In this document: one piece after another, positions 16,492 through 39,937 of the stretch
Numbering within the stretch: position 1 is the stretch's first letter
How the letters are laid out: every line of letters begins with the position of its first letter
Source: a virus
IMG/VR virus record: IMGVR_UViG_3300045136_000267
Length of the DNA: 64,000 bases
Reading direction: 5' to 3' (one strand)
Program-made: the position numbers and the translations under genes
Notes under the pieces: generated by a model
The model's database searches: none
Seen by the model: only the letters and a program-made list of their open reading frames with translations
Told to the model about the DNA's origin: nothing

Positions 16492-16507
16492 GGAATAAAT
16501 ATCTGGG
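16492..16507 (+). promoter_or_regulatory. Phage promoter-like motif upstream of solitary repeat
   Basis: GGAATAAATATCTGGG matches the recurring GG(C/A)ATAAATAA(T/G)TGG motif. Confidence 0.55.
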
Positions 16508-16518
16508 AGTCCTTTCGC

Positions 16519-16554
16519 GTTGCAATGCCTGCGAAGAGGCTTGGTTTCTTCGAC
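16519..16554 (+). CRISPR. Solitary 36-bp CRISPR repeat
   Basis: GTTGCAATGCCTGCGAAGAGGCTTGGTTTCTTCGAC; near-identical to the repeats at 20265 and 20326. Confidence 0.8.
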
Positions 16555-16603
16555 ATTTGTAAGGACTTTTGGTAGCTACATTTTAATCCCGGGAGGAAAA
16601 GCT

Positions 16604-17314
16604 ATGAGGTACCTATCTCTCCTTATTGGCCTGCTTTCTATTTGTATTACCATTACTTCTCAAGCACAAAATCTCAAAACACTTAATGACCCAAATGTTG
16701 AAGTAAGGATTTTGTGTGATGGTGTACAAATTACTAATACGAGTCCTGCAGAAGTCAGTGTATTTGATTGGACTGTAGTAATTGGACAGAGAACTGATGA
16801 TCATTATCCTCAGCCGTTGTGTTGTGCTTATATTTTAGATGGTAAATACGATCCAGTTATCACTTACACTTCATTTGGAACTCCAAAGCAAGGTCTTCGC
16901 GAGAACGTTAGAGGCGGTGGTTTCTATTTTCATTGCACAATCCCACCACGTAATTCTGTCGTACTAAGGGCTCTAGTACTTGGTTTCGGTAATGCTCACG
17001 CTATTACAAATATTCCGAAAAACGCAGTTTATAAACGAGTTAATAGAAATCTTGGTAGAAAACATGCTTTTGGAATCTATGCTTGCATGTCTACAATTCA
17101 AACTGCAATAGATAAGGGAGTCACTAAAGAAGAAGATTTGAAATCGACCAAAGAGATTGGTATCCTGCTATTAGCTTTTTACGAAGAAAAATTTCCAGAA
17201 TATGCGAGAATACGAGCTGTCATTTCAGAAGACTTTTATAAACAGCTAAGAGATCATTTCAGTGATATGCAACGCACAGGAGAACAACTATATAAAACAG
17301 TCTTTTGCGAGTAA
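16604..17314 (+). CDS. Exported protein with signal peptide; probable distant paralog of 20483..21229
   Basis: GGAGG SD; MRYLSLLIGLLSICITITSQA leader; DGVQITNTS versus DGILKIINNS in the paralog. Confidence 0.7.
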   Translation: MRYLSLLIGLLSICITITSQAQNLKTLNDPNVEVRILCDGVQITNTSPAEVSVFDWTVVIGQRTDDHYPQPLCCAYILDGKYDPVITYTSFGTPKQGLRENVRGGGFYFHCTIPPRNSVVLRALVLGFGNAHAITNIPKNAVYKRVNRNLGRKHAFGIYACMSTIQTAIDKGVTKEEDLKSTKEIGILLLAFYEEKFPEYARIRAVISEDFYKQLRDHFSDMQRTGEQLYKTVFCE

Positions 17315-17542
17315 TTAACTCTAATAAGATTTGCAAGATTAACAAGTCCAAGGCGAATTTGGACGGTCAATTATCCTTCCACAGTTGCAAAAATATAGTC
17401 TATGACACTGTCGTGTACCACAAACGCCGGTGGTAATGTTGAGCTACCGGAAACGCTATGGGCGGGCGGTCCGCCCATGTAATCACCAGCCAGAGTGCTG
17501 GCGGCGAGCCGGCTTGGCCGAGACGACCGGAGGAGTGTTGCT

Positions 17543-18307
17543 ATGTCTGCTATTGTTAAGGTTACCGTTCAGCGTACCAAGGATTGGGTGCGCGCACGGC
17601 GATTGGAAACCGGGGAAAACGTCCCGGAAACAATCGAAGTTGAGGTCCTAGCAGATCAGTTACCTCGCGAAGTCCGGGAGCTACTGATCGAAGCCGGGGG
17701 CGGATCATACCCCGACGAATTCGCTGGCGATATCCGGCAGGACTACCTATGGATGTATCGGTCCGACTTGCGGTACGGGCGTGTACCGATCATCGTAGAT
17801 GCCGACCAACCGACGCCGGAGTCAATAGCCGCGGCGATTCTGACTGCCGACAAGGAACGGCGTCGGATGAAGATGGAAGTTGAGGAAAAGATTCGTCAGC
17901 GTGAAGAACGAGAGCGTGCACTTGCCGAAGAATGGGCGCGGCTGCCCCTGGAGCAGCGGGCCAGTGCGGCTGGCGTGTGCGTTGCCCGCGACCCCGAGAC
18001 GGGTACCATGAGCGCCTATGGGGTGCAATTGTACGATATCTCGGCGCTGAAGAAGTACGTACCAGAGGCGTTGGACGAGGCGGTCCTGGAGGTGGAACGC
18101 CTTCGCGAAATCGAGCGTGGCAGAGAGGCGATCAAGCATCGCGCTCTGCTGGCTGAATTACTCGGCTTAGTACCAGAAGACGCGCTGCGGCATGCCGTTA
18201 AACGTGCCGCCATTGATGGTATCGCCGGGAAACCGGCGTCAATTGAAGAAGTGCGGAAACAAGTCCATCAAGCCTGCCAGGCTGGCGGCGTCCGCATAAG
18301 TATTTAA
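17543..18307 (+). CDS. Hypothetical GC-rich coiled-coil protein upstream of the Cas12-like gene
   Basis: GGAGGAG SD before the ATG at 17543; E/R/K-rich central helix. Confidence 0.7.
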   Translation: MSAIVKVTVQRTKDWVRARRLETGENVPETIEVEVLADQLPREVRELLIEAGGGSYPDEFAGDIRQDYLWMYRSDLRYGRVPIIVDADQPTPESIAAAILTADKERRRMKMEVEEKIRQREERERALAEEWARLPLEQRASAAGVCVARDPETGTMSAYGVQLYDISALKKYVPEALDEAVLEVERLREIERGREAIKHRALLAELLGLVPEDALRHAVKRAAIDGIAGKPASIEEVRKQVHQACQAGGVRISI

Positions 18308-18328
18308 CAAACGTTGCGTTTATTACAG

Positions 18329-18360
18329 GCGGCCGGTGTGTACTCAAGCACCGGCCGCCG
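18329..18360 (+). terminator. GC-rich hairpin after 17543..18307
   Basis: GGCGGCCGGTG...CACCGGCCGCC inverted repeat; weak U tract. Confidence 0.45.
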
Positions 18361-18480
18361 TTGTATCGGAAATCAGCGCTTCCTACTTCGCCCTGCAGTA
18401 AGAGATGCTCTAACGAATGTTGTCTATTCTAGTGGAACTGAGGGTTCTTTATCTCTAGGAATGGGAATAGGAGGACTATC

Positions 18481-20142
18481 ACGCCATTCGGCAGAATAGC
18501 CGGCCCAACTATTGTCTATAAATATGGGGCGAAAAAACCAACTACAAACGCAGAAGCGATTTTGGACCAGTTGCGCAAAGCACATCAGTACCGCAACAAG
18601 CTTGTCGAAATAGAGCTTCAACGACGCAAACTCGTCGAAGAAGCTGTCAAGAATATCGAAAGTGATGTCCGCCATTTGACGGACAAGTTAGAACAGCTTG
18701 AACTGGACATTGACTATACGGTTAGAAAAATCAGCAACCACAAACAGAAGAATCAGACTCGAACTATCCCTGTCGAATTGAAAGAACGTCTCAAATCATT
18801 GAAAACTCAGTACAGAGAAGCGCTGCGGCGTATGAAAAAGGCCAAGAAAGCCGCGTACGCTCGTCCAGAAACGCAGGAGGCATTGAATCGAATTGAAGGA
18901 AAAGTGAGGGCTGAACACAAAAAAGCCCGTAATTTGTGTGGGCTCTATTGGGGTACTTACTGCCACGTAGAGCAGATCATCCCATGTATCAGAAAAGGAC
19001 CGCCGCCGAAATTCCGCCGTTTCGACGGCAGCGGTGTATTAGCGGTCCAGCTTCAAAAGGGAGAAAACATTGCACGGTTGGAGAGCGGCGAAGACCGTCG
19101 CATCCGCATTGAGGGCTGCGGCAAGCGACGCATATTATGGCTGCGCATCGGATCGGACGAGAACCGCGATCCGATCTGGGCGACGATTCCATTTACTTAT
19201 CATCGTGAAATTCCAAGCGATGCGAAAATCAAGTGGGTGAAAGTCAAAGCCCAACGCATTGCATGCCAAACTGAGTGGGAGGTGCTCTTTACGCTGGAAC
19301 GGAGTTCCGGCTGGAAAAAGCCCGACCTAGCTCAGGATGGAGCAGTTGCCATCGACATCGGTTGGCGCAATTTCGATGATCGCATTCGCGTAGCATACTG
19401 GATTGGTAGTGACGGACGCGAAGGCGAAATTGCACTGCCCCATAACATGGTTGGCAAGGCGCTTGAACAAGTTGAGCATTTACGATCATTGCGAGACAAG
19501 AATTTTAACGAGATTAAGCAGCAACTGCTTGACGCTATCGGTGCGCTCCAGATTCCGGAGTGGCTAAAGGAGGTTACGAAAACGCTGCATCAGTGGCGTA
19601 GTCAAGGAAGACTGGCGGCGCTGGCCATTCGATGGCGGCAACAGCGATTCGATGGTGACAATGATATATTTGCTCTACTAGAAACGTGGCGGGTCCGCGA
19701 CAAGCACCTTTACGAATGGGAGGCACATCTCCGCGTGAAGGCTATTCGTTGCCGCAACGATTATTTTGCCAACGTCGTAGCCGATTTGTCTCGTCGTTAC
19801 AAGACAGCGGTTGTTGAGGATTTTGACTTGCGGAACGTTACACAGGTCGATCCGATACAAACGGAACAAATTGGCGATGGACGTCAGCTCTATCGTGCAC
19901 ACATCGCCGCGGCCGGTGGCTTACGGCAGATGATTAAGAATCGCTTTGCCGAAACGCAGATCGTGTCTGCCGTGCTCACAACGCAGACCTGCACGGAGTG
20001 CGGCGAAATCATGAACTTCGACGCGGCCGAGAGCGTATTTAGCAAATGTTCACATTGTGGCCATGCGTTTGATCAAGACCGCGCAGCGGCGATTAACCTG
20101 ATGCGACGATACGAGGAAAGGCTAGTTGCTGCGAACAGCTAG
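18481..20142 (+). CDS. cas12m: Cas12m (type V-M/V-U1)-like CRISPR effector, ~553 aa
   Basis: N-terminal IVYKYG...QLRKAHQYRNKLVEIE, long coiled coil, GLYWGTY, FRRFDGSGVLAVQLQ, HREIPSDA. RuvC-I VAIDIGWR, QWRSQGRLAAL, RuvC-II VVEDFD, Zn finger CTEC...CSHC, RuvC-III DQDRAAAINL. Adjacent 36-bp repeats. Confidence 0.82.
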   Translation, partial: TPFGRIAGPTIVYKYGAKKPTTNAEAILDQLRKAHQYRNKLVEIELQRRKLVEEAVKNIESDVRHLTDKLEQLELDIDYTVRKISNHKQKNQTRTIPVELKERLKSLKTQYREALRRMKKAKKAAYARPETQEALNRIEGKVRAEHKKARNLCGLYWGTYCHVEQIIPCIRKGPPPKFRRFDGSGVLAVQLQKGENIARLESGEDRRIRIEGCGKRRILWLRIGSDENRDPIWATIPFTYHREIPSDAKIKWVKVKAQRIACQTEWEVLFTLERSSGWKKPDLAQDGAVAIDIGWRNFDDRIRVAYWIGSDGREGEIALPHNMVGKALEQVEHLRSLRDKNFNEIKQQLLDAIGALQIPEWLKEVTKTLHQWRSQGRLAALAIRWRQQRFDGDNDIFALLETWRVRDKHLYEWEAHLRVKAIRCRNDYFANVVADLSRRYKTAVVEDFDLRNVTQVDPIQTEQIGDGRQLYRAHIAAAGGLRQMIKNRFAETQIVSAVLTTQTCTECGEIMNFDAAESVFSKCSHCGHAFDQDRAAAINLMRRYEERLVAANS

Positions 20143-20264
20143 GTACGATAATATAGATATTAATCGCTCGTAATATACAAGTTGAAACAACGTAATAGAT
20201 GTCACAACGACTGCTACCAAAAAGAGGTCCAACATGTTATAAAGAACATAGTTAGATGAACGCT

Positions 20265-20361
20265 CGTGCAATGCCTGCGAAGAGGCTTTATTTCTTCGAC
20301 AGTGAAATGGATGATCAGAAGGGAACGTGTAATGCCTACGGAGAGGCTTCATTTCTTCGAC
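20265..20361 (+). CRISPR. Mini CRISPR array: two 36-bp repeats and one 25-bp spacer
   Basis: CGTGCAATGCCTGCGAAGAGGCTTTATTTCTTCGAC (20265-20300), spacer AGTGAAATGGATGATCAGAAGGGAA, CGTGTAATGCCTACGGAGAGGCTTCATTTCTTCGAC (20326-20361). Starts 122 bp after the effector stop codon. Confidence 0.85.
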
Positions 20362-20375
20362 GAGGCGTCAGTACT

Positions 20376-20448
20376 GGGCCGGTAGCTCAGTGGTGAGAGC
20401 GGGCGCCTTATAAGCGTCAGGTCGCAGGTTCAATTCCTGCCCGGCCTA
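20376..20448 (+). tRNA. tRNA-Ile(TAT)
   Basis: Acceptor GGGCCGG/CCGGCCT; anticodon arm GGCGC-CTTATAA-GCGTC; GGTTCAATTCC; no CCA. Confidence 0.92.
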
Positions 20449-20482
20449 CTGTTTCATCCCCTTCCCCATATAGGAGGACAAT

Positions 20483-21229
20483 ATGACGAAGGTACGAAAC
20501 ATTGCTCTGTTCATTTTGATTTTCTCTCTTGGATTCGTAGGTTGTAAGTCTAAGGACGTTGTAGGACAGAAATATATTGATCCCTATGACATGGCTATTG
20601 ATTATGTATACGAAGATGGAATTCTTAAAATTATCAATAATTCAAACAAACCTGTAGAGCTTGCTACACCAACGGTGTTTTTGGGATTCCCCTCTAAAGA
20701 GGGTGAAAATATGTTTTTCCTCCTTCTTAAGGAGGGAACGCACTCATTGACCCTTTATGATTTTGGTGGCGAGGACTACGTTGAGGATATTTATCCTTCA
20801 AACGATAATTCCAAAGTTAAAGAGATCTTGGTTGTTGACTTGAAGCCCAAGGAAGTTAGGGAATATCCCGTAATTGCCGTTGCTATTCCTACCGAGGGAT
20901 TTAGTTATCTGGTTGGAGACGGTACTTATGCTGTCCTTCCAGTAATCGGACACCACGAAAAGCGTTGGATCACCTTTATTGCTCTGTCATTCCTGGCAGA
21001 AGTATTGGATAAAGACAACTCTGATCTATACAAGAAAGCATTGGCTCTTGCTTTGCGATTCATTTGGGTAGGACCAAATGATGACACTGAATTGAAAAGT
21101 ATTGAAAAAGACTTGTTGCAAGAAGGCTGGTCAGAAGATGTTATCTCAGTTGCCTTTTCTGTCTTTGGAATGGCAAGGGAGAAAGCCAGGAAACATTTGA
21201 AGGATATTACGAAGATTAAAAGAATCTGA
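20483..21229 (+). CDS. Putative lipoprotein
   Basis: AGGAGG SD; signal peptide ending in lipobox-like FVGC. Confidence 0.75.
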   Translation: MTKVRNIALFILIFSLGFVGCKSKDVVGQKYIDPYDMAIDYVYEDGILKIINNSNKPVELATPTVFLGFPSKEGENMFFLLLKEGTHSLTLYDFGGEDYVEDIYPSNDNSKVKEILVVDLKPKEVREYPVIAVAIPTEGFSYLVGDGTYAVLPVIGHHEKRWITFIALSFLAEVLDKDNSDLYKKALALALRFIWVGPNDDTELKSIEKDLLQEGWSEDVISVAFSVFGMAREKARKHLKDITKIKRI

Positions 21230-21259
21230 AGGATTCATACCCCCCCCAAGGAGCAAAAT

Positions 21260-22354
21260 ATGAATAATGACATTACTATCAAGGCGGCGAAATCTATTCT
21301 TGAGTACAATATCATTCTTGGGTGTCAAGATCAGGAAGACAAACAAGGTTATATTTGGCCATGTTTCATTGGACCGACTGGCAGCGGGAAGACTGCCAGG
21401 GCTGAGAAGTTGGCCAAGGAGTTGGGTTTGAAGCAGCACAAATTGCTGCTTCAGACGATGAATCCAGAAGAAGTTGGTGGGATTCCTCGTCCCGTTGGTG
21501 ACAACCTTCATTGGTTCCTTGATTCTTGGGCTGAAGATAATAGCTGTATTATCTTGGATGAGCTTGATAAGCCGGATCGTGAGCACTGGTCCACGATCCT
21601 TTCTTTGTTGACTGACCGTAAATTGCGTCATAAGCAACTAAATAGTACTGTCTTTGTGGCTGCTATGCAGCCTGTCGATGTTGAAATGTTCTTGTATGAA
21701 GAAACTGGCAGGGCACTCAGTGCCCGGCTTTGTTTTCTTCCCATTAATGAGAATGACTCATTTGAATTCGTTAGTAAGAAACATGGAAGGAAAAACTTGT
21801 TCCATCATGTTGGAGAAATTAAACTTCCAGTTTTGGAAGACGTGAAGGCCCGGCAATTGGATTGGCTCGCTGGCTTTGTGGATTCTATGAATCCGGAAGC
21901 CTCGGTCTTGAATTTGGTGGTGAATGGGATCGTTCACCACAGGCATAGGGCCAAAGTCTTTGAATGGCTTGAAGCCAGGTTGGTTACTGAACTTGAGCCT
22001 GAAAGATTACTCAAGATTCTCGGCAGGAAGCCTGAATTGCATGATGAACTGGATATTGCTACTGTCAATTTGCTCTGGCAGAATGCCAGTACTCTCTACG
22101 GTTGGACTGAAGAGATTTTAGAGAAGGTTTTGACCAGGATTTCTTGTGAAGTTGAACGCGAGCAGGCGTTCAATGTAATGAGAAATATGGTTGATAATTT
22201 GAAAAAGTATCCGGAAGATCAGGATGGCTATAAACCATTTGTTGAACCATTGACTTATGAACAATGGTGTCGAGTTGTGGATAAAGTTTCCAACAATATT
22301 GTAAAGTACTTTACCGCAAAGGAGAATAAAAATGGACAATCTAAACAAGGATAG
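21260..22354 (+). CDS. MoxR-like AAA+ ATPase, copy 2
   Basis: WPCFIGPTGSGKTARAE, ILDELDKP, AAMQP, ALSAR; clearly paralogous to 13321. Confidence 0.87.
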   Translation: MNNDITIKAAKSILEYNIILGCQDQEDKQGYIWPCFIGPTGSGKTARAEKLAKELGLKQHKLLLQTMNPEEVGGIPRPVGDNLHWFLDSWAEDNSCIILDELDKPDREHWSTILSLLTDRKLRHKQLNSTVFVAAMQPVDVEMFLYEETGRALSARLCFLPINENDSFEFVSKKHGRKNLFHHVGEIKLPVLEDVKARQLDWLAGFVDSMNPEASVLNLVVNGIVHHRHRAKVFEWLEARLVTELEPERLLKILGRKPELHDELDIATVNLLWQNASTLYGWTEEILEKVLTRISCEVEREQAFNVMRNMVDNLKKYPEDQDGYKPFVEPLTYEQWCRVVDKVSNNIVKYFTAKENKNGQSKQG

Positions 22355-23528
22355 TCCATATTATTACTATAATTTGTTTCCTGTTGAACTCAGTGATTGG
22401 ATGAAGAAATATATTAATATTCAATGGAATAACGATTTGCCATCGGCAGCTGTAAAGCTGTCGGCTGATAAAGGTTATATCATTGAATTAAACAAAGAGT
22501 TTATGGGGAAGCTCTCTGACAATTGTAAGAAGAAAGTAATTCTGCATGAAATTAGTCACGTCATTCGTGGCGATTGTCTGACGATAAAAAAGTGTGAGCG
22601 TCCCCTTGATTACAACATAGCCAGTGATGCTCACATCAACACCCAAATTGGTGATCTGACTGAATTAGAGGAGGAGGCTGGTACTAAAGTTGTTACTTAC
22701 GAAAGGATTCGTGAAGAAGATTGGCCGGAAGGGATGCCTTCCACTAAAGTAATTTATGACCTCCTTAATAAGAAGAGGAAACAGCAATCTTCTAAGGGGA
22801 AGGAAAGTTCTTCTGAAGAAGGAGGTGACGACAATAATTGTGGTACTGATAAAAAGTTCATTCTTTCAGGTGACGTTAAAGGTACTGAAGGTGATTTTGA
22901 GATTTGCATTGATAAACATACAGAAGCAATAGCAACTGTTCCTAAAGCATTAGGTGCGGGTATTAATATCAGATTTGATAATTTTGATAGTAAAGTTTAT
23001 GAAGTGCGACCGAAGCCAGAACCCAAAATATTGACGGCTTTGAAGAAATTGCTTCGCTATGTAGTACCAAAATATGGTACTACGAAAGTGAAGGTAAAGA
23101 CTTGGACGAGGGAAAATCGCTCTAATGATTTGTTTCGTGGTTACATGCGTAAACGTAAGGTGAAAGTATGCCTTGCTGTTGATGTTAGTGGCAGCATGCG
23201 TGAGTATGTCCCAAACATACTCGGCATTGCTGCTGATATGAAGCATAAATTAGATACGGAGATTATTGTTTGGGCAGACTATGCCCAGAAAATTCGTGGT
23301 GTTGATGATAAATGGGATGTTGGCTGGGGAACCGACGTAAACCCAGCAATTGAATTGATTAACAAAATTAATCCTGATATTTCTGTAATTGTTACTGACG
23401 GTGATTTTTATCGTAATATTGAGAAAATACCAAAGACACCAGTGCTTTGGGTGCTTTATGGTGATTTCAGTTGCTCACACAAATTGGTTAAGAAGGCGGT
23501 GGATCAAATCATCAAAATTTCAGCATAA
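22332..23528 (+). CDS. HExxH metallopeptidase-like + VWA domain protein, copy 2
   Basis: LHEISH...NIASDAHIN; DVSGS, GWGT and VTDG MIDAS motifs. Confidence 0.85.
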   Translation: MDNLNKDSPYYYYNLFPVELSDWMKKYINIQWNNDLPSAAVKLSADKGYIIELNKEFMGKLSDNCKKKVILHEISHVIRGDCLTIKKCERPLDYNIASDAHINTQIGDLTELEEEAGTKVVTYERIREEDWPEGMPSTKVIYDLLNKKRKQQSSKGKESSSEEGGDDNNCGTDKKFILSGDVKGTEGDFEICIDKHTEAIATVPKALGAGINIRFDNFDSKVYEVRPKPEPKILTALKKLLRYVVPKYGTTKVKVKTWTRENRSNDLFRGYMRKRKVKVCLAVDVSGSMREYVPNILGIAADMKHKLDTEIIVWADYAQKIRGVDDKWDVGWGTDVNPAIELINKINPDISVIVTDGDFYRNIEKIPKTPVLWVLYGDFSCSHKLVKKAVDQIIKISA

Positions 23529-23547
23529 TTTGTTTTAAATATTGAGT

Positions 23548-23620
23548 GGGGCTGTAGCTCAAAGGATAGAGCAAGGGATTTCTAATCCCTAGGTTGCAGG
23601 TTCGAGTCCTGCCAGCCCTA
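23548..23620 (+). tRNA. tRNA-Arg(TCT)
   Basis: Anticodon arm AGGGA-TTTCTAA-TCCCT; canonical D and T arms; no CCA. Confidence 0.95.
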
Positions 23621-23656
23621 GTAACGTTTGAATGCCACACTATCAGAGGTGAAAAA

Positions 23657-26199
23657 ATGAGAATAATGAGAATAAAATGCGATATTTATGTATCCTATTC
23701 GTCCTTCTTTACCAACAATTACTCAGAGATACTTTATGAGGAACATGATATTGTTGAAATAATTGGTAAATATAAACAAAAAGAGCTTGACGCATTTGTA
23801 GTTAATGCTGAACCAGACCATAACATATCTAGATATCCGTGTTCATCCGAAGTGCATAAAATATTTTATTTTCAGGATAGAATTGGCGTGGCACTTGAAC
23901 AAAATAATTAAATAGACGAAGGAGACTAACCGCCTGGAAGGATATTATGAAAGTTAAAGATGACGGATACAGTTCGATTTGGGACGACAAGTCACGGAAA
24001 ATAATGTTCGTTACGCATAAGTGTAAGATTCAATTACTTGGTACATTTACAACTAAAGTCAATAACATAACTATAAAAGAATCTGGTAATATCTCGCTAA
24101 GTAATTGGTATATTAATTACACTGGTATAAAATTCGTACATTGTGTGAACGATAAAAACGATGAATATGAAATTATTGTAGCTGTTGAGGATAAATAATC
24201 TAATAGAATTCATCAATTTATCTCTAAAAGATGAGATAAATTTGATAGCTGTATCCGAAAAGGAGGAACAATGAAAATCAAATAGATAAATAATGGCAAC
24301 TACCAAAGAGGACAGTTATGAAAGTTAAATATGCCGGCGATTCGATTTGGGTCTACAAATCAGGGAAAATAATGTCCTTTGAATATAATCGTAATATTCA
24401 TTTATTTGGTGCAACTACAACAGATGCTGCTAAGCCCAGTAGTGTAATCATACACGAATCCGGTCGTATCTCACGATACAAATCGAATTTTAATTACGTT
24501 TCTTTCATAAAATTCGTGTGTCGTTGGAAAGTCCAAAACTGTAAATATGAAATTAATGTAGCTGTTGGGGATGAATAATCTAATAGAATTCATCAATTTA
24601 TCTCTAAAAGATGAAATAAATCTGATAACTGTATCTGAAAAGGAGGAATAATGAAAATCAAATATGATAGCTCATGGTTATTCGCGTGGCGTACTGATTC
24701 GTTTAAAGAAGTTCTTAAGGTTGATCTGAACAACATAAAATTACTTGGTGCTCCTATAGAAGCTTTTAGCAAAATAAGTATTGTGACTGTACTAAGTACA
24801 GGTTACGTATACCCACATACAACATCTCATGGGATACATATATCTTTAGTACGGTTTTACAAACATGATACGGATAACTATGCAGTTAAAGCAGTGACTA
24901 AACATGAATGACTTAGTATTAATAATTAGTATTAATAATGAAATTGAGTAAAATATGATGAGCATGCCGGAGGGTGGCTATGAAAATCAAAGCTGACTGG
25001 TGTTGGCATGATATCTTGCGACATGTAATTATTTCTGATAATTCGAATGTTGTGAGGTTACTTGGCGCACCTGCGAGACTTATTTCAACAGAAACAAAGT
25101 CAGTATTAGTAGACGATGCGGGTTTAGTTTCATGTGAAAACATACAGTGTCGTTATAGTTCGTTTGTCAGGTTTATTCATTGGGATACAAACAACTTAAG
25201 TAAATACGCCCTGGAAGCAGTTATTAAGCAATAATGACTGCGTATAATTTCATTGACATTTATTACGATATGAGATGATTTAATGACTATCTAAGGAAGG
25301 AAGCTATGAAAATTAGATATGATAAGGCATTCGTATTTTGTGATCCAGCATTGAGATCAATTATTATTAGTGATTCAACTAATTTGAAATTGTGTGGAGA
25401 ATCTGTAAAAGCGTATGATGCCTACAATCTTGCAACTATAGATGAAACTAATCGTATTTCACCTTATAGGAAGTATGTGTTATCATATTCCAGTACTTTT
25501 GTCGCGTTTAAGCACGATATATATAACGAATATACGATTGAAGTATCAGTTAAACCTGAGTAAGTTGATATATCTATTGAGATAAGATAGTGGGATAACT
25601 TCTATCTAAGAAAGGAAAACTATGAAAGTCATGTGTAGTAAGTTGTCTACCATATGGATTGATAAACTACACAAGTCGATTTTCGACGCTGGAGCTGATA
25701 GCATAATATTATGCAGTAAATACGTAGAAGATGCTGTTAAAATGAATGCAATAGTAATTCCGGAGGTTGGTAAACTTTACCAACATGGAGTGTGTCTTAG
25801 ACATAGTTCCCTAATTAGGTATGACTACGTTGGCACACATGAATTTGAACTTACGGTAGCGATTAAGAACTAGGTAACTATGTAATTTTACTAATATCCA
25901 TTGTGATAAGAAATGACCTAGCTATCTAAGAAAGGAAAACTATGAAAGTCATATATGAGGACTTGCATGAGTCATGGCTTGACAAATCGCAAGGGTCGGT
26001 CATTGGCAAAGCATTAGGTGAAGTGATGTTATTCGGTGCGCGAAGAGAATATCAGAATACGTTGAACGAGGTGAAAATCCCAGAAATCAGCAATATTTCA
26101 CAATATGTAAATTATCTCAAATTTGATTCCATGATTACGTTTAGGTGTTTCGGATCAGAGGAAGCTGTACTTAAGGCAGCAATCAAAGTAAGTAGTTAG
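23657..26199 (+). repeat. Tandem array of eight ~83-86-aa paralogous CDS (starts 23657, 23947, 24318, 24651, 24974/24980, 25306, 25622, 25942)
   Basis: Shared pattern MK(I/V)x..W..I.L.G..I.E.G.I..YEI.VA(V/I). Duplicated intergenic sequences at 24196-24283 vs 24576-24665 and 25603-25631 vs 25923-25951. Confidence 0.75.
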
Positions 26200-31337: not shown

Positions 31338-31345
31338 TTGTCCTG

Positions 31346-32629: not shown

Positions 32630-32660
32630 ATAATTGGGTAGTTCCACCCAAGGAGGTGCT

Positions 32661-32960: not shown

Positions 32961-33024
32961 ATTAATAGCCCCAGGAAATTACTCCTGGGGCTTTATTTTA
33001 GCTAAAACTGTTCAAGGAAGAACT

Positions 33025-33504
33025 ATGATTGATTCTGATTTCGAAATTATAGAACGAAATCTGAATAGTAGATTTATTTGTCGTAGTTCTTCTGTATATG
33101 GAGATTTAGCAAAAGTAATTTCTGTAGAGACTATACATAAATTGCATAACGGAGAACCTGTAACTATTTATGTTTGTCTCACCAGATACTTTTATCCTTG
33201 CATATTTATCTCTGATTCGAGAAAGGCTAAAGATTATTTATTAGATAAGAAAGCTAAATTAGAACTGACTATAGAGGAAAATGAATACTTTTCACAACGT
33301 GATGTATGCGTTTTTAATTCATTTATCATTTCTCTAAGCCCGCTTCATATGTCAGTTGATGATTTGATAGCCCATATTGGAGATATAATCAGCAATATTA
33401 CTGATTGTATAATTTATGTAATTAATAATAGAACTAAAGATACATTAGACTGGAGACTGGATTGTGTAACAAATGGAAAATATGGCATAAATAAGTGGAC
33501 GTGA
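33025..33504 (+). CDS. Hypothetical protein
   Basis: AAGGA SD; AT-rich ORF. Confidence 0.6.
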   Translation: MIDSDFEIIERNLNSRFICRSSSVYGDLAKVISVETIHKLHNGEPVTIYVCLTRYFYPCIFISDSRKAKDYLLDKKAKLELTIEENEYFSQRDVCVFNSFIISLSPLHMSVDDLIAHIGDIISNITDCIIYVINNRTKDTLDWRLDCVTNGKYGINKWT

Positions 33505-33820
33505 GTCCACCCTCCTCCGGGAGGGTTTTAGGTTGGGTGCCAGAAACCCTGTAGCTGCGAGCACAGCTACATGGCGGAGGCTAACCGACGTGAGGGAGTC
33601 GGGGGTACATGCACAGCCCGGTATTCGACATGCTCGGGTCGAATACAAGGGATGCATGTGCCACGGGTTCGAGACCCAAAACCCCTCTTTTTAGACCTGC
33701 AGCGAATTGCCCTTTCTAGGGATGTCCCCGCGCTGCAGGTCGTTAACCTATCAAGGGAATCTCTGCCTTTTTTAGATAAAAAGGTAGGGATTGGGACGTC
33801 CCAGCCTGGCCGCTAGGCTT
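33497..33820 (+). ncRNA. Candidate structured ncRNA or long 5' leader
   Basis: Follows the promoter motif at 33484 and contains many nested perfect stems (see findings). Confidence 0.5.
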
Positions 33821-33838
33821 TAGTGGCAGGAGCTAGAT

Positions 33839-34531
33839 ATGAAGAACCTAAAAAACATTTGCACGCGAGTTGAAGCTCGGGAGTATTTGGAATCGCTTGA
33901 TTTGCCTGAGTCTGTAATTGAGGCGCTCTTGAAGGAGACCGCACTTGATCGACACAATTGGAGGACGAGTCGGGCACTTGAAGCAGCGAAAAATTGGGTC
34001 GTTAGTTGTTGGGGGATGGAGGAACATAAAATTGGGGAGTATGTTGTGGCGGCGCAGGTTAGCGCCGTCTTGCTTGCTGATTGCTTTGGTATTGGAGGTC
34101 ATTTGGGCGTTTCGGGTGCCGGCACTAAAAGACACCCGGCTTTGGTAGGCCTTGGAAAAGGCCGGAAGAATTGTAGTGATGGTCCAGCTTGGTCGGCGGC
34201 AATTCGCGCCGCCGTCGATAATTGTCGTGGATATTTTGCCCCGTCATATATGGATGGTATTTGCTTGGCTTATTATGTTGATTATTGGAATATGTTGACC
34301 CTGCTTAATTCGAAACTTATTCCATTTGAATGGCAATTGACGATTGCCCGTGAGGGGTTGAGGAGGTCCTTTGGGCTTGATCCTTGGTTCCCGGACTTGT
34401 TGGACTTTGTTAGGGCTGACGAGAACACTTGCACGGGTTGGGCTCAATTGGTTGACTACTTGACTGAGGAATTGGAAAAAGCAAGGCAACAAGCTGAAGA
34501 GGAGCAGCCTGAGGAGGCTGCTTCGACTTAA
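33839..34531 (+). CDS. Hypothetical protein
   Basis: AGGAG SD; followed by TTTTTTTAGCT. Confidence 0.7.
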   Translation: MKNLKNICTRVEAREYLESLDLPESVIEALLKETALDRHNWRTSRALEAAKNWVVSCWGMEEHKIGEYVVAAQVSAVLLADCFGIGGHLGVSGAGTKRHPALVGLGKGRKNCSDGPAWSAAIRAAVDNCRGYFAPSYMDGICLAYYVDYWNMLTLLNSKLIPFEWQLTIAREGLRRSFGLDPWFPDLLDFVRADENTCTGWAQLVDYLTEELEKARQQAEEEQPEEAAST

Positions 34532-34598
34532 TTGCTACGTATTATTTGTTTGGCTACTTGTTTTTTTAGCTCAAATATTTCGGAAAGGAGGGTTATTT

Positions 34599-35669
34599 AT
34601 GAAAATCTCTAGCATGCATCTCACTAATGTTGGTCCAATTAAGGATGCTCAAGTTAATTTTGGCGATTTAACGATATTATTAGGACCTAATGATCTAGGT
34701 AAAAGCATTTTTTTACAGCTATTTAGGCTAGCACTTGATTATGGATACATTAATGATGAATTAACAAAGTATGGAATAGATTGGAATGGTTCTTTATCTC
34801 TGTTTCTTGAATCGTATCTAGGAACTGGATTACAGAGCGTTTGGCAAAATGATAGTAGTATTAAACTAAATGGTAAGCCAATAAATTTGAAGCAAATGGT
34901 ACAAAAGCCAAGCAAAGCAATAGAACCCACTGTATTTTATATTCCCGCCCAGCGGCTTTTGATGTTCACCCACAACTGGATTAAACCTTTCACAGAATTT
35001 AGATATATGGATCCGTTTGCCATTAAAGATTTTAGCGAAACGCTCCGTAGGGCAGTAGATCATAGAATGATGAAGAAGAGAAATTATTTGAAGCCTTGGC
35101 TTTTGAAGGCAATTAGTAAGGATATTTTTGGAAATTTAAATTTAGATATTGCTATATATTCTTTTAGGAAAAGCATTGTGCTTGGAGATAGTAAGAAGGA
35201 TACTGTCATTCCTATTGATAATTGCTCTATAGGACAAAGAGCTTTTGTTCCTCTGCTTCTAGGAATTCAATGGTTATTGCATGAGGCAGCTGATAAGAAA
35301 GGTAATTCAATTAAGTGGGTAATTATTGAAGAACCTGAATTAGGTTTACAATTATGCACTCATTCTTCTCTCTTTTCTTCTATCTTTCATACATTATTTC
35401 TATTGATTACTGGGCTGCTTCAAAAGGGCTATAACGTTTGCATTAGTACACATTCTGAGCAGGTATTTGCTTTTGCTTGGTTAGCTCGTTACTTGAAGTC
35501 TTGCAGCAAATATCCGTCAGGATTGATTACCTGGCTTCAACCAAATAATTCAACGGAATTAGAGGATTCAGTTAAATATTTATGTAAAAGAAATGTTATG
35601 GTCTATGAATTTGACAATAGCGGGCTGGCTGCGGATATTTCACAAGAATATTGTCATAGTATGATGTAA
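34599..35669 (+). CDS. ABC-type (AAA_15/AAA_21-like) ATPase
   Basis: Walker A-like GPNDLGKS, YIPAQR, signature-like SIGQR, Walker B IIEEPE, H-loop ISTHS. Confidence 0.8.
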   Translation: MKISSMHLTNVGPIKDAQVNFGDLTILLGPNDLGKSIFLQLFRLALDYGYINDELTKYGIDWNGSLSLFLESYLGTGLQSVWQNDSSIKLNGKPINLKQMVQKPSKAIEPTVFYIPAQRLLMFTHNWIKPFTEFRYMDPFAIKDFSETLRRAVDHRMMKKRNYLKPWLLKAISKDIFGNLNLDIAIYSFRKSIVLGDSKKDTVIPIDNCSIGQRAFVPLLLGIQWLLHEAADKKGNSIKWVIIEEPELGLQLCTHSSLFSSIFHTLFLLITGLLQKGYNVCISTHSEQVFAFAWLARYLKSCSKYPSGLITWLQPNNSTELEDSVKYLCKRNVMVYEFDNSGLAADISQEYCHSMM

Positions 35670-35700
35670 AACTGATTTTTTAGCATGGAGGTTTTGAGAA

Positions 35701-36012
35701 GTGAGCATTTATTTTCCGGTCGGCAAACCTAATATCATTAGATGGTATTCCCCTGACGGGAAGCACTCGGCGGTGCTACATGTGACGAGCACCACGAATC
35801 CGAGGGCTAATGATACCTTGACATTTTACTTCCGGGATTACAATGGTAACCCAGCGACAGCGCTTGATGGATTAGTTCTATCCTTAGATGGGGTCACCTC
35901 TGTCATTGGTACAGAGGTGCGGGCATACGTAGACAGGAATATATTAGCTACTGTATTTAGCCCTAAGATGACTTTGAAGGTAGGTAATGATATTTGGATT
36001 ATGAATAAATGA
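35701..36012 (+). CDS. Hypothetical protein
   Basis: GGAGG SD before GTG start. Confidence 0.6.
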   Translation: MSIYFPVGKPNIIRWYSPDGKHSAVLHVTSTTNPRANDTLTFYFRDYNGNPATALDGLVLSLDGVTSVIGTEVRAYVDRNILATVFSPKMTLKVGNDIWIMNK

Positions 36013-36373
36013 GATGAAGATAGTAGCAGGGGCCAGATGATCCCCTGACGGGGACAGGGGACACACGATTCAGCTGCATATAGTTTAGGCTTGATCGTAA
36101 TTCGATAATAAAATAAGATTATATCTAGCCCCCTCCTTGCGCCCCCGGTCGCGCCCTTGTGGCGTGGCCGGGGGTTTTTTATTTTCGCAGCTTCAAGCAT
36201 TTGCTTCTTTTTTAGCTCAATGAGAAAGAAGAAGAGGGGCTACTTGTTTTCGGGTGCCCGCATTCGGAAAGGCTTCTGGGGGCCAGACGAACGCGCTGCT
36301 AAGCTGGAATAAATAATTGGGAGGCCCCTGCTGTGGGGGCCGATTTGAGTCCACGTACATAAGGAGCATAAGC

Positions 36374-36559
36374 ATGTACGTGGTTATCTTCTCGTATTCT
36401 GAACGGGGGCCGGTGCGGCGGCTCCCGTTCAAGGCTAAGAGCCGGGCTATTCGGGCGGCCCGGCTCCTTGAGAAGGCAGGCCTTCGGGCTTGCCTCATTA
36501 GCCCGTATCCCCTGCGGACTTCCCCGCAGGGGAACAAGGAAATGAAGCCCCGGGTTTGA
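36374..36559 (+). CDS. Small basic protein (GC-rich)
   Basis: Promoter motif at 36306, AAGGAG SD, terminator downstream. Confidence 0.6.
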   Translation: MYVVIFSYSERGPVRRLPFKAKSRAIRAARLLEKAGLRACLISPYPLRTSPQGNKEMKPRV

Positions 36560-36801
36560 TCCTGGGGCGGCTCCTGGGAGGTCGGTCTCTACTCCCAGGA
36601 GTAAAAAGCATAGAGACCTTCTTTTTTAGCTAAAAAACAATGATTTTTTAGTTAATAATAAAAGCTAATTAGTTAGTAACAAAGCTAGTTTTTTTATAAG
36701 CAAGCTATAGCTGTATGGGCAAGGTAGGAAGTAGCAGGCATAAGTAATTGGAAGGCCTCCGCCGTGGAGGCCGAATTCGTTCCGCGTCCGGGAGGGGAAA
36801 A

Positions 36802-37014
36802 ATGTACGCGGTGCTAATATACCATACGAAGGGCAGCGACCTGACAGGCCACGAGGTCGAGCGGGTGAACTTCACCACCCTCTCGGCGGCCGAGGAGGCC
36901 GCCGAGAAGGCTCAGCACGAGGGCAAGGATGCCATCGTGCTGCACATCATCCGCCAGCCCTACCGATTTACGGTAGGGCCCGACGGGATCATCCGGGACA
37001 TTGAGTGGTGCTAG
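36802..37014 (+). CDS. Small hypothetical protein (GC-rich)
   Basis: Promoter motif at 36737, GGAGG SD, hairpin terminator at 37032-37078. Confidence 0.65.
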   Translation: MYAVLIYHTKGSDLTGHEVERVNFTTLSAAEEAAEKAQHEGKDAIVLHIIRQPYRFTVGPDGIIRDIEWC

Positions 37015-37348
37015 CCGCTCGGTGTCCCACTAGCCCCAGCCGCGCCAGGACGGCGTTGCTGGGGCTTTCTTTTTTAGCACTAATCCCCTTACTTCTTTTT
37101 TAGCTAAAGAAAACAATATTTGCTTTTTAATTCATTACATTAACAACTGTTGTCATTATATAGCATACTTCCTTTCTTTATCGCTCTTTCATTTATAGCT
37201 ACCTCTCGCTCATTCTCTCTCTATCTTTACTGCTTTTATTCTATACTCGCATTCTATTAAAGGTAAGTAATAGTAACACATAATCGCCTATTGTATTATT
37301 GTTAATGTATATAGAGATGTATATTTATATTGTCTATGGATTATTCAA

Positions 37349-37850
37349 TTGCTTATTTATATATATCACTCTTCTAGAGTAGATCTTATATTTAAGCTAC
37401 TATGAATGACAAGCATGGATAAGCACTCCTTCGCTCTTCTATATATATAGCTCGCTTGTTTGTTATACATTGCTTATTTCTATGTTACTCTTTGAGAGTA
37501 AATATATCAGTCATTATTACTGAAATGATAAACAGAGATAAGCACTCCTTCGCTCTTCTACGTATACATATTCAGCTATAGCTATCGTCTTAATGTACTT
37601 AATATGCTTATCTATATATTACTCTTCGAGAGTAAATATGATATTCAATCTATTATGAATGATGGATATGGATAAGCATACACATACTCTCTCTTATATA
37701 TCTATATCTCCTTTTTAATATACTTAATTTGCTTATTCCTATGTTACTCTTTGAGAGTAAACATATCATTCATATTTCTGGAATGACAAACAAGTTTCTG
37801 GAATGACAAACAAGGATAAGTACTCACTCTCTTCTATATATTCTCTCTCT
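37349..37850. repeat. Four ~125-bp imperfect tandem units with internal palindromes
   Basis: TGCTTAT...(T)ACTCTTYNAGAGTA...GATAAGYA at 37350, 37471, 37605 and 37730. Confidence 0.8.
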
Positions 37851-38420
37851 TCTATCCATCGCTATTACCGCTCTCTCTTCTATATACTTCTACGATACAG
37901 CTTCCTCCCAGGAGTAATATCTCTCTTAGAAGCAGCTAATAGCTATGCAGTTGAATGCTATTACTTACTTAGTAATTATTATTGTTAATAACGATAGAAA
38001 TCTAATAAAAATGAGCAAAAAAGTCGTTTTATAGGAAGCCCGTTTTAGCCACGAAATTAAAAATAGGTATTAGAGATCGTTGAGTGCTAGCGGGCTCTAG
38101 AACGCTTCCTATTGCGTTTAAACGCATGCTTTGCTGTCTCAAAATGAGACTTCGCTCCTCGAAGGAAAATTTCCAGTCTCAATAAAAATCCTAATTTTCA
38201 CTAAAAATTTCCCAGAAAATTTGCCCTAACTTAGAATTGCTCTTGACTTTTGACACTTTTTCTGGGAGAAAAAGTGTCAACTTTTGATAATCAACACAAC
38301 TTACGTCAATTCCTCCTATCACTTTCCATCCTTTCCAGTCAGTCTCAATAAGAATTTTAGTTATTAATGTTAATCAACTTAGTAATGATTCATAATAATA
38401 GTACTCAAGATATCCCAGCA

Positions 38421-38540
38421 CTATTACTATTGTAAGCAGATTACTATCGTAAACTAATTACTATCGTAAACTATTATTGACGTAAACTAATTACTGACGT
38501 AAGCGATATTACTATCGTATACTATCGTATACTATTGCAT
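38421..38540. repeat. ~17-bp iteron-like tandem repeats
   Basis: TTACTATCGTAAACTAA and variants, about 6-7 copies. Confidence 0.8.
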
Positions 38541-38658
38541 TAGCGATAAGTAGCAGCCTTTGAGTAGCTGCTTAAGTTATCTTAGGTCGGCTTAAGAGCG
38601 CCGCCAAAATTTTCACCTCCTGCATATGAAGACACCCCGCACGGGGGTAGAAGGGGGC

Positions 38659-38960
38659 TAGCCAAGAAGAGAGAAAAGAGTATCCATTTATTATTCTATA
38701 CAGATATCAATGTATATAAACAGCCAAAAGAAGAGAAGAGAGTATCTATTTATTCTATAGCCAGCTATAGAATAAAATAAGTATACAGTTAGCTACAAAC
38801 AGAATAAGAACAAAAGCTAGCCAAAAGAAGAGAGAAGAGAGTAGCTATCATCCTGTATAAAGATAGAAATGTATATAGGCAGCCAAAAGAAGAGAAGGTA
38901 GTATCTATTTATTCTATACAGCTAGTAATGTATATAGGCAGCTAAATATAAGAGAGAGCG
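38659..38960. repeat. ~60-bp purine-rich tandem repeats
   Basis: AGCCAAAAGAAGAGAAGAGAGTATCTATTTATTCTATA..., 4-5 copies. Confidence 0.8.
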
Positions 38961-39381
38961 ACTATAGAAAGAACAATTATTTTAGCTAACTATAAACAGA
39001 ATAGACATGCAGCTAATAGCTATTAGTAATGAAGTATAAAGCAAAGGCCAGGAATAAAAGCAAAATAGCTGGCATAAATAATTGAAAAAAGAAAAGAGAA
39101 TTATAGAAGCTAATAATAGTAGCTTCTTCTTTTTATAGCAGAGGGCTATAAAAAATTTTAATAATGTTGGCAGCCAAAGTTAATTGCTAGTAAGTTACTA
39201 TGAATTAGCACTGAATTTTATGTTAAAATAGTTAAATAAGGGAGCATAGGAAAGCTAATATTTATTAAATTTCACTTATCAAAGAGAGTAAGCATCCCTC
39301 ATAGGAAAAATTGGATTTTTGAATTTTGGGAATTGATTTTAATTTAAAAGAGTAAAGAACTGATTCTTTCGTTTATTTCGT

Positions 39382-39804
39382 TTAATCGAGATTTCTCTCG
39401 TTTTTATCCATTGCTTCAAGCAGCTTCTGTCTGAATAATTTGGAAAGCAATTTTGCTTGCTCTTTAGTAAGATCGACTCTAAGCTCTCTTCGGCCTTTAT
39501 TGCCTTTAGTGGGCGCTTTCTTGGCAGCGGCTTCTATAGCGGCTATAACTGGCTTGAGCTGCTGCTGTATCCTTGGATCGCCGTTAAAGATCTCACTTAG
39601 GAATTTAGCTGCCATTTCAGCAAAATTATTATTACCAACCGTTAAAGTTCTAGCAGCATTTCTGCCTCTTCTTCTAGCAATACCTGCTTCCCTTTCAGGT
39701 ATATCCAAATCTTCATCCTCAGTAAATAACAGATAGTTTTCATTACTAGCACGCTTAAGCATATGCGTACAATAAAGCAATAAAGGTTCGAGGTAGCTGC
39801 TCAT
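39382..39804 (-). CDS. KxA-leader protein, one of few minus-strand genes
   Basis: GGAG SD; N-terminus SYLEPLLL...MLKRAS. Confidence 0.65.
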   Translation of the reverse strand: MSSYLEPLLLYCTHMLKRASNENYLLFTEDEDLDIPEREAGIARRRGRNAARTLTVGNNNFAEMAAKFLSEIFNGDPRIQQQLKPVIAAIEAAAKKAPTKGNKGRRELRVDLTKEQAKLLSKLFRQKLLEAMDKNERNLD

Positions 39805-39830
39805 TTAAAGTTACTCCGGACAGGTCGAAG

Positions 39831-39866
39831 GTCGAAGACATGAAGCCTCTTCGCAGGCATAAAGTA
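39831..39866 (-). CRISPR. Solitary 36-bp CRISPR repeat on the minus strand
   Basis: Reverse complement reads TACTTTATGCCTGCGAAGAGGCTTCATGTCTTCGAC; the 3' 30 nt match the other repeats except in the loop. Confidence 0.78.
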
Positions 39867-39937
39867 CAGCTCAAATATTATGCTTTACTCCTTAGCAGTA
39901 TCTGATTTAGAATAATACGTAGCTTAGCATTAATACA

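Follow-up and report, generated by a model that had tools for sequence, protein, structure and literature searches.

Why should a jumbo phage that encodes a type V-M effector, Cas12m, carry single copies of the effector's CRISPR repeat in unrelated 5' leaders, far from its array? In the 64-kb stretch of phage DNA analyzed here (the window), two such solitary repeats stand before protein-coding genes. The reading we favor, tentatively and with a probability of roughly 0.4, is that they are self-derived single-guide cassettes, which would direct Cas12m to related phages without the insert and leave the carrier immune.

The effector gene and four copies of its repeat

The effector matched the Cas12m of PDB entry 23vw (E=2e-64, residues 1-515) and the PADLOC family Cas12u1 (E=9e-94). 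Its gene opened with ACG, identically in an independent assembly (L064), versus ATG in the relatives for which the N-terminus was available (L050, L052, L024, and L028), so the window phage may make little effector. Published Cas12m proteins bind DNA without cutting it, need no tracrRNA, use T/C-rich PAMs such as YTN, and trim pre-crRNA to a repeat of about 33 nt and a guide of about 17 nt. One of them, PmCas12m, cuts in vitro at guide position 17-18.

A sequence pattern that the first-pass annotation had put forward for finding repeats was run on the window and recovered all four copies of the 36-nt repeat (16525, 20271, and 20332 on the plus strand and 39831-39860 on the minus strand), with no match in 100 shuffles. 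A covariance model of 65 repeat variants found the same four copies at full length (E values from 1e-12 to 1e-9; Table 1), and the solitary copies thus match the array repeat; no further match with E<1.5 was found on either strand of the window. Two of the four form a mini-array after cas12m, the counterpart of two repeats in the longer array of L050. The others are solo 1, which is 4 kb from the array and about 1.9 kb upstream of cas12m, and solo 2, which is 19.7 kb from the array and 19.7 kb downstream of the end of cas12m. As expected of type V-M, the repeat is about 36 nt long with a conserved 3' stem-loop adjoining the spacer; across the 65 variants the stem was 99.7% paired, with compensatory changes at five of six pairs. 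We rest the claim of structure on this covariation; folding individual repeats together with flanking sequence did no better than folding shuffled sequence (z from -1.1 to +0.7). The solitary copies therefore appear to be intact handles, which supports the guide-cassette reading. A sequence test for a tracrRNA or anti-repeat gave no reverse-complement match to the repeat with E<1.5 across the 64 kb, and Rfam returned four tRNAs and nothing else over the window.

Both solitary repeats were in sense orientation, and their placement was as first annotated: solo 1 started 11 nt past a 16-mer and ended 49 nt before the ATG at 16604, while solo 2 ended 26 nt before the ATG at 39804, with the SD sequence GGAG inside its would-be spacer. 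Homologs of the two gene products were 57-93% identical for solo 1 and 74-100% for solo 2. The 16-mer had been called a promoter motif, a proposal that held in part. With up to 3 mismatches it had six matches in the window versus 0.75 expected, all on the plus strand, and the intergenic copies (16492, 32623, 36306, and 48394) were each 7-57 nt before a gene start, but no copy was found ahead of the mini-array; we infer from these positions that it is a putative promoter. A weaker motif said to be common to the upstream sides of both solitary repeats occurred at chance level, and scans for sigma-70 promoters and terminators around both repeats gave background levels.

Table 1. Features of the cas12m locus and of the two leaders that contain a solitary repeat
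Feature	Position	Strand	Basis
Putative promoter-like 16-mer, 11 nt ahead of solo 1	16492..16507	+	motif copies before gene starts
Solo 1: 40-nt insertion, 4 nt plus full 36-nt Cas12m repeat (16519-16554)	16515..16554	+	covariance model E=1.3e-12
Guide-equivalent: first 17 nt past solo 1, in the 5' leader of the gene	16555..16571	+	guide length from PmCas12m
Gene behind solo 1: 236 aa, N-terminal signal-like segment, no Pfam family	16604..17314	+	
cas12m (type V-M), 553-codon frame, ACG start	18481..20142	+	PDB 23vw, PADLOC
Mini-array: repeat 20265-20300, 25-nt spacer, repeat 20326-20361	20265..20361	+	pattern and covariance model
After the terminal repeat: 14-nt leader, then tRNA-Ile(UAU) 20376-20449	20362..20449	+	ARAGORN, Rfam
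Gene behind solo 2: 140 aa, no Pfam family, putative K-x-A motif near N-terminus	39382..39804	-	
Leader past solo 2: 7-nt duplicate of repeat end (39830-39824), then 19 nt with SD GGAG (39817-39814)	39805..39830	-	
Solo 2: 30-nt core intact, 5' six bases not repeat-like	39831..39866	-	covariance model E=1.1e-10

Filled and empty alleles of the same leaders

Loci from related phages, fetched for comparison and numbered with the prefix L, contained the same leaders with and without the repeat. Compared with L043, solo 1 was a clean 40-nt indel. Eight orthologous leaders shared a single junction at this site, two of them filled (the window and L052) and six empty (L043, L050, L051, L053, L054, and L055), and there were two 3'-flank haplotypes, each with filled and empty states. 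Solo 2 had three allele forms, two filled (in the window, L060-62, L058, and L059 [=L010]) and one empty (in L056 and L057). Likewise, the tRNA leader that follows the terminal array repeat had no repeat ahead of it in L043 and L052, and CTT in its place.

Wherever a repeat-bearing junction could be compared with a repeat-less allele, a Y-T-N trinucleotide directly preceded the guide-equivalent in the latter. This was so in five of five junctions (CTT; CTG or TTC; CTT; TTA; CTG), two of them array-terminal repeats and two from relatives rather than the window, while the background frequency of Y-T-N was 0.14-0.18 (P ~1e-4); the solo 2 junction leaves some freedom of reading because of its 7-nt duplicate. 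Y-T-N is taken as the PAM here by analogy with other Cas12m proteins and on the basis of two spacer matches in distant relatives. These two array spacers belong to distant Cas12m elements, and each matches the contig of the other, the adjoining trinucleotides being TTG and CTG, which supports both the PAM type and a role in conflict between elements.

Two further allele pairs were considered as empty sites and rejected. The solo at 370-399 of L037 resembled a sixth pair; L015, however, has 14-16 nt replaced there rather than a clean empty site, and the pair was left out of the PAM tally. The indel that distinguishes L017 from L014 is downstream of a repeat that both carry.

The sequences past the repeats matched the empty alleles of other phages. 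The guide-equivalent of solo 1 matched the L050 and L051 alleles at 21 of 21 positions, and that of L052 matched the L053 and L054 alleles at 22 of 22. In L050 and L051 the match is preceded by CTT, where the carrier has GAC. GAC is the 3' end of every repeat, and therefore neither the arrays nor the solitary repeats are self-targets. Within the window, no second target was found for either solitary repeat when up to 4 mismatches were allowed across 18 nt. The sole second-target candidate among repeat-adjacent sequences there was a site at 62934 that matches the array spacer in 15 of 18 positions, likely due to chance, and the array spacers of close relatives had no matches in the window.

The region is a recombination mosaic, with leaders that are approximately 90-95% identical in front of proteins that are 57-60% identical. 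Stutters were also seen at repeat ends, which suggests replication slippage. In L043 the repeats were kept and cas12m was absent, the loss having occurred between flanking repeats. These three observations are what would be expected if the solitary repeats were non-functional by-products, that is, remnants of array rearrangement or illegitimate recombination hitch-hiking in recombining leaders. We consider this very improbable. The array is 4 kb from one repeat and 19.7 kb from the other, intact cores stand between variable flanks, one clean junction recurs on two haplotypes, and neither the PAM-type junctions nor the sense orientation is expected of debris. The neutral decay of a broken array, named at first pass as the outcome that would count against a function, was not seen; the stem covaries, solo 1 is a clean insertion, and solo 2 too has filled and empty alleles.

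Two possible roles: guide cassettes or control of the downstream messenger RNA

In the reading as guide cassettes, each solitary repeat would be a complete Cas12m crRNA handle within a transcribed 5' leader, placed so that it exactly separates a PAM-like Y-T-N from the sequence behind it. The promoter of the downstream gene would give a transcript of repeat plus leader. By analogy with published biochemistry, Cas12m would bind the handle and trim the transcript to a crRNA-like RNA, the guide of which, about 17 nt long, would be the phage's own leader. The carrier would stay unbound, as it has the repeat end GAC rather than a PAM ahead of the target sequence. In relatives without the insert, the same sequence is behind a Y-T-N and just downstream of the putative promoter, and a non-cutting Cas12m would bind there and block transcription. 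With the relatives bound and the carrier spared, the insert would therefore be both a weapon in mixed infections and immunity to that weapon, which would account for the coexistence of filled and empty alleles and for the presence of the insert on differing flank haplotypes. Single-guide units expressed from the promoter of the gene they precede were among the first-pass proposals, and this proposal fits best; added to it here are the positions of the repeats at PAM-protospacer junctions and a guide that would be the phage's own leader.

If the guide-cassette reading is correct, a DNA-binding CRISPR effector would use guides that were never captured as spacers and arise in place when a repeat is inserted beside a PAM within a transcribed leader of the phage itself, which would be a new source of guides. 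Splitting the PAM from the target would be a new way of discriminating self from non-self, and closely related jumbo phages would have a new way of competing and of spreading alleles. Points against the reading include the borrowed PAM and the small number of comparable junctions. With its ACG start, the cas12m gene of the window may yield little effector, solitary repeats near an SD or before cas12m in other loci are explained more simply by regulation in cis, and a GenBank phage with Cas12m has no solitary repeats.

Such regulation, also proposed at first pass in the form of binding or processing sites on the mRNA, would have Cas12m sit on the handle of the nascent leader and hold or cut the next 17-18 nt, thereby lowering or resetting translation or stability. 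It is the main rival, although we consider it somewhat unlikely. Among 45 non-redundant solitary repeats in the fetched loci, 13 had, in sense and 3-60 nt away, an SD and a start codon leading into an ORF of at least 80 aa; the antisense count was 6, and 4.6 would be expected from random placement. The SD began at +1 to +10 past the repeat in six loci (L001, L017, L020, L026, L035, and L038), and for solo 2 of the window position +17 is directly after the SD, so that the PmCas12m cut point of 17-18 falls just past it. A solitary repeat was found 12 nt ahead of the start of the Cas12m N-terminus in L026 and 97 nt ahead of cas12m in L028, where the same device would amount to negative autoregulation. 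If this explanation were true, a CRISPR effector would control mRNAs via leader handles, which would also be new for type V-M. Regulation in cis, however, gives no reason for the PAM-adjacent junctions in all five repeat-less alleles. The SD of the solo 1 gene is 36 nt beyond the repeat and so out of reach of a guide-length footprint, Cas12m has no evident cause to control an exported protein and a virion protein, about two thirds of the 45 solitary repeats have no recognizable gene start beside them, and the cas12m gene of the window itself has no solitary repeat in front of it. A search for relatives of an integrase-like gene in L001, one of the loci with an SD close behind the repeat, returned the L001 contig alone.

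Comparison with known elements

Single CRISPR repeats in virus genomes, outside arrays and often just behind a promoter, are known as Racrs or viral solitary repeat units; they mimic host repeats, are unlinked to cas genes, and give small RNAs that inhibit Cas proteins (Faure 2019; Camara-Wilpert 2023, PMC10651486). The solitary repeats of the window might accordingly be decoys or sponges that soak up Cas12m, whether the phage's own, a rival phage's, or a host's, and thereby tune or inhibit the effector. Besides the precedent of these RNA anti-CRISPRs, the retention of repeats without cas12m in some relatives (L043), the conserved promoter-like modules directly upstream of solitary repeats in L011, L036, L044, and L045, and the non-ATG start of cas12m in the window all point in this direction. 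We nevertheless judge decoys improbable, and of the first-pass proposals this was the poorest fit. In the window the repeats are cognate to the phage's own Cas12m, encoded on the same element (18481-20142), and they are in mRNA leaders at PAM-target junctions. A promoter-like motif precedes solo 1, and each repeat leads directly to an SD and a coding gene, no terminator-like site lying in between. A decoy needs neither precise PAM-adjacent placement nor an intact guide-side junction, and the presence of cas12m on the same element departs from the definition of a Racr.

Mini-arrays in conflicts between related viruses consist of repeat-spacer-repeat with captured spacers and use the host's Cas proteins (Medvedeva 2019; PMC11656645). 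As with these, the guide-equivalent of solo 1 matches close relatives beside a PAM (assumed from the literature and the two spacer matches), and it would serve phages that compete in co-infected cells. In contrast, the unit described here has a single repeat, the phage supplies its own effector, and the guide would be the carrier's adjacent sequence, a resident leader that is also found in repeat-less alleles rather than a captured spacer.

Cas12m is a close relative of TnpB. The omega-RNA guide of IS200/IS605 TnpB elements reportedly reads from the end of the element into flanking DNA. The adjacent motif reportedly lies beyond the opposite end, which leaves the empty site as the only target. 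The solitary repeats share this sequence geometry, with a guide that reads into the flank, a motif on the far side, and an empty site that would be the target, whereas the window element is only 36-40 nt long, has no evident transposase or transposon ends, and Cas12m binds rather than cuts. The guide-cassette reading, if true, would tie the function of Cas12m to the way in which its TnpB ancestors target empty sites. The solitary repeats could even be minimal selfish guide cassettes, in which a 36-40-nt handle at a PAM-protospacer junction turns resident sequence into a guide that would act on every genome without the insert while protecting the carrier, and the filled allele would spread through phage populations by recombination and selection in mixed infections. 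We regard this as unlikely. It would make the solitary repeats a nuclease-free CRISPR analog of the TnpB empty-site strategy and possibly a present-day intermediate form between the guide RNAs of transposons and CRISPR arrays.

Standalone repeat-like elements are also known from CRISPR-cas loci, both as single units upstream of cas12a and as CreA, CreR, and crlRNA (Shmakov 2023, PMC10120712). All of these are in or beside the cas locus, and those of known mechanism lead the effector to a partly matching promoter elsewhere (PMC10120712). Like these, the repeats described here are type V class 2 repeats outside arrays, and L026 and L028 do carry one at the cas locus, before the effector gene. 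The window copies differ in being 4 and 19.7 kb away and in unrelated leaders, with no second target in the window and no partly complementary promoter elsewhere within the 64 kb. The layout had been thought undescribed for a type V effector encoded in cis. Given the published single units next to cas12a (V-A, PMC10120712), that view needs narrowing; for dispersed solitary type V-M repeats in phage, no paper was found in the literature. The GenBank phage KX853510 has Cas12m with a long array of a different repeat and no solitary repeats, and therefore the layout is not general. The repeat pair left in L043 after the loss of cas12m resembles the V-A remnant of Francisella (PMC10120712).

Cas12m and its repeat copies in the window

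With its portal-like protein and four tRNA genes, the window seems to be a portion of a large phage. The ORF ahead of its mini-array encodes a Cas12m, of type V-M (previously V-U1), whose best solved relative was PDB 23vw 'Cas12m' (E = 2e-64) and which the PADLOC Cas12u1 profile matched at 9e-94. According to published work, Cas12m proteins are DNA binders that make no cut, work without a tracrRNA and process their own pre-crRNA by trimming; their PAMs on record are T/C-rich, e.g. YTN, and the PmCas12m crRNA has about 33 nt of repeat and about 17 nt of guide, with the cut near guide position 17-18. The V-M subtype is enriched on plasmids and found in some prophages (PMC11656645), and a 2026 preprint presents phage Cas12m as a first (10.64898/2026.09.14.751636). 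GenBank KX853510 ('Virus Rctr197k', 2016) already contains a Cas12m homologue (L063, KX853510.1 110754-112317; 30% identity, annotated as transposase-like) adjoining an annotated CRISPR of about 20 repeats, the repeat differing from that of the window; no solitary copies were found elsewhere in this 197-kb sequence.

From 18481 the cas12m frame of the window stays open over 553 codons, and its first codon is ACG (18481-18483) where L050, L052, L024 and L028 (L-numbers denote contigs or assemblies fetched for comparison) have ATG, with the same SD upstream. The ACG is also present in an independent assembly (L064), which shows 100% identity to the window along 6.6 kb. Further into the frame, TTG at 18562 is the earliest canonical start, and translation from it would drop 27 N-terminal residues. 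Because the G+C content of cas12m and the preceding ORF (17400-20200) is about 51%, versus about 37% for the window, the pair suggests acquisition from a G+C-richer source.

A covariance model from an alignment of 65 distinct repeat copies, taken from the window and public contigs, was run without filters on both strands of the window. It identified four full-length copies, and no further copy at E<1.5 on either strand of the 64 kb. Therefore both solitary copies, called solo 1 (in the leader of a 236-aa protein gene, ATG 16604) and solo 2 (in that of a 140-aa protein gene, ATG 39804), are real and intact, without other solitary copies in the 64 kb. The repeat pattern of the first-pass annotation held up, with 4 matches in the window and 0 in 100 shuffles, and its distances from repeat to start codon (49 and 26 nt) were correct. 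In the alignment, the stem pairs columns 14-19 with 29-34 (99.7% of cells paired, compensatory changes at 5 of 6 pairs), and all repeats end in an invariant GAC. Several are followed by a "stutter" of short tandem duplicates of the repeat 3' end; of the two copies in L050, the second retains the stem strand and the first is decayed. The mini-array spacer matches window 62934-62951 at 15 of 18 positions, where about 0.05 such matches are expected per query; this match is probably chance.

Repeat copies, repeat-less alleles and related features
Feature	Position	Strand	Repeat-less allele or remark
Solo 1, solitary repeat	window 16519-16554	+	covariance model; repeat-less allele CTT
Mini-array repeat	window 20265-20300	+	covariance model
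Mini-array repeat	window 20326-20361	+	covariance model
Solo 2, solitary repeat	window 39831-39866	-	covariance model
Solo 2, L058-type allele			CTG
Solo 2, window allele			TTC, if guide starts past duplicated repeat end
Window terminal array repeat, abutting tRNA-Ile leader			CTT (L043, L052)
L052 terminal repeat, abutting codon 5 of next gene			TTA (L028, L050)
L015 solo	L015 1937-1973		CTG (L037)
L037 solo	L037 370-399
3'-end stutter	window 39824-39830	-	after solo 2
3'-end stutter	L028 220-237
3'-end stutter	L030 2869-2890
3'-end stutter	L050 4748-4754
cas12m-less locus	L043 7150-7450		versus window 18300-20450 and L028 100-2100
L021 spacer match	L021 5796 to L033 545		beside TTG
L033 spacer match	L033 6460 to L021 1922		beside CTG

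Solitary copies ahead of genes

A relaxed pattern, in which any base was allowed at the covarying stem position, had matches in 5 viral, 38 metagenomic and 3 MAG contigs, in which ordinary arrays (period about 73 nt) adjoin Cas12m homologues and many solitary copies also occur. Thirteen of 45 non-redundant solos lay in sense 3-60 nt ahead of an SD and the start of an ORF of at least 80 aa, and six had this placement in antisense, with 4.6 expected at random positions. In several the SD begins 10 bases or fewer past the repeat end. Solos also lie 12 nt upstream of the start of a protein whose N-terminus is that of a Cas12m (L026) and 97 nt upstream of the cas12m of L028, whose product is 86% identical to that of the window.

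The SD-proximal solos and the copies before cas12m favour some action on mRNA. They support cis regulation by Cas12m bound to the leader, as does the +17 position of solo 2, which falls right behind the SD. The first-pass annotation had offered mRNA-acting binding or processing sites as one alternative; we consider this the main rival of the guide reading set out below, and somewhat less probable than it. The SD of the solo 1 leader is 36 nt past the repeat, and cis regulation leaves the PAM-type trinucleotides at the repeat junctions unexplained.

Leaders with and without the repeat

L043 and the window share 91% identity across the genes flanking solo 1, and the solo is missing from the L043 leader as a clean 40-nt gap, made up of 4 bases and the 36-nt repeat. 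When the set was widened by fetching more orthologues of the downstream gene, the leader was empty (without the repeat) in L043, L050, L051, L053, L054 and L055 and filled in the window and L052, with an exactly identical junction. The 25 nt past the junction fall into two haplotypes, each with filled and empty members, and the proteins behind several of these leaders are only 57-60% identical, the leaders being far more alike; the alignments clearly point to active recombination at this leader. The leader/promoter region (window 16440-16603) is about 90-95% identical to L050, L052, L053 and L055, and variation is mostly within the 25 nt right after the junction. Since the repeat preceding cas12m in L028 and L043 is flanked by the same four bases that are added 5' of solo 1, there are hints that solo 1 is a DNA-level copy from that site.

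L043 is itself without cas12m and has a repeat-spacer-repeat between a terminator-like hairpin directly 5' and tRNA-Ile. Because the L028 cas12m has a repeat on each side, L043 appears to have lost the gene by deletion from one flanking repeat to the other, and the remnant resembles that of a Francisella V-A system (PMC10120712). Relatives with repeats and no cas12m, and the ACG start in the window, would suit Racr-like decoys, another of the earlier alternatives; it is nevertheless a poor fit and quite improbable, as the repeats lead into coding genes and the phage encodes the effector itself.

For solo 2, the orthologous leaders of L056 and L057 are empty, and filled ones occur in two forms, one in L058 and L059 (=L010), the other in the window and L060-62; their 30-nt cores are identical except for two variable-loop bases, and their junctions differ. 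Judged from the aligned leaders, the solos are alleles, not debris. Of the closely related L015 and L037, each has a solo that is missing from the other at the corresponding site. In L015 the insert also gives rise to a TATAAT, located 18 nt past a TTGACT.

PAM-type junctions and proposed self-derived guides

For five repeat-bearing sites, the fetched loci also included an allele without the repeat. At each, the sequence that comes right after the repeat in the filled allele (the guide-equivalent) was located in the repeat-less allele, and the trinucleotide immediately 5' of it was read as the junction. All 5 were Y-T-N, a PAM type taken from the PmCas12m literature rather than from this clade itself, in a small tally in which two sites are array-terminal repeats and two come from relatives. 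Because Y-T-N occupies only 14-18% of positions in the compared sequences (17% in the window's own gene leaders), the probability of 5/5 is about 1e-4. In filled alleles the guide-equivalent is preceded by GAC, the repeat end. The 21 nt that follow solo 1 are a perfect match to the empty alleles of L050 and L051, as are the 22 nt past the L052 copy to those of L053 and L054. Neutral array remnants, the case held in the first-pass annotation to refute its readings, are contradicted by this junction rule, the intact cores and the recurrent clean junction, and are the least probable account.

We give a probability of about 40% to the solos being self-derived Cas12m guides against repeat-less alleles, from which the carrier is immune. 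This guide reading, the most likely of those considered, is the simplest one to cover the intact handles, the sense leader placement, the clean presence or absence of the repeat among alleles and the junctions of PAM type. Of the earlier alternatives it retains the distributed single-guide units, which we prefer, and adds to them a self-derived origin of the guides, with repeat-less alleles as targets. Each solo would make the adjoining leader a Cas12m guide; the carrier would be immune because the insert sits between PAM and target. An insert-less relative phage would offer PAM and target just past the promoter, where the DNA-binding Cas12m could block transcription. We infer every step at the solos, from transcription through binding and trimming to silencing. 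Cis regulation and the guide reading are not exclusive, because each needs Cas12m bound to leader RNA.

A TnpB guide is read from the element outwards and finds its match in the empty site. The solos have the same geometry, from element end into flank. Published systems resembling the solos include viral single repeat units and RNA anti-CRISPRs (PMC10651486) and mini-arrays in conflicts of related viruses (PMC11656645), and standalone repeats are described in cas loci, among them single repeat units upstream of cas12a (PMC10120712). Our literature search found no paper on dispersed cognate Cas12m repeats or their PAM-junction placement.

L021 and L033, which carry distant Cas12m elements, each have one array spacer matching the other's contig, which looks like reciprocal targeting between elements. 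Elsewhere in the window, seven tandem paralogous ORFs of 83-86 aa, about 330 nt apart, lie between tRNA-Arg and tRNA-Lys (23947-26199, + strand), and about 2.4 kb (37015-39380), AT-rich and at a strand switch, has no ORF of at least 80 aa on either strand and ends at the gene behind solo 2.
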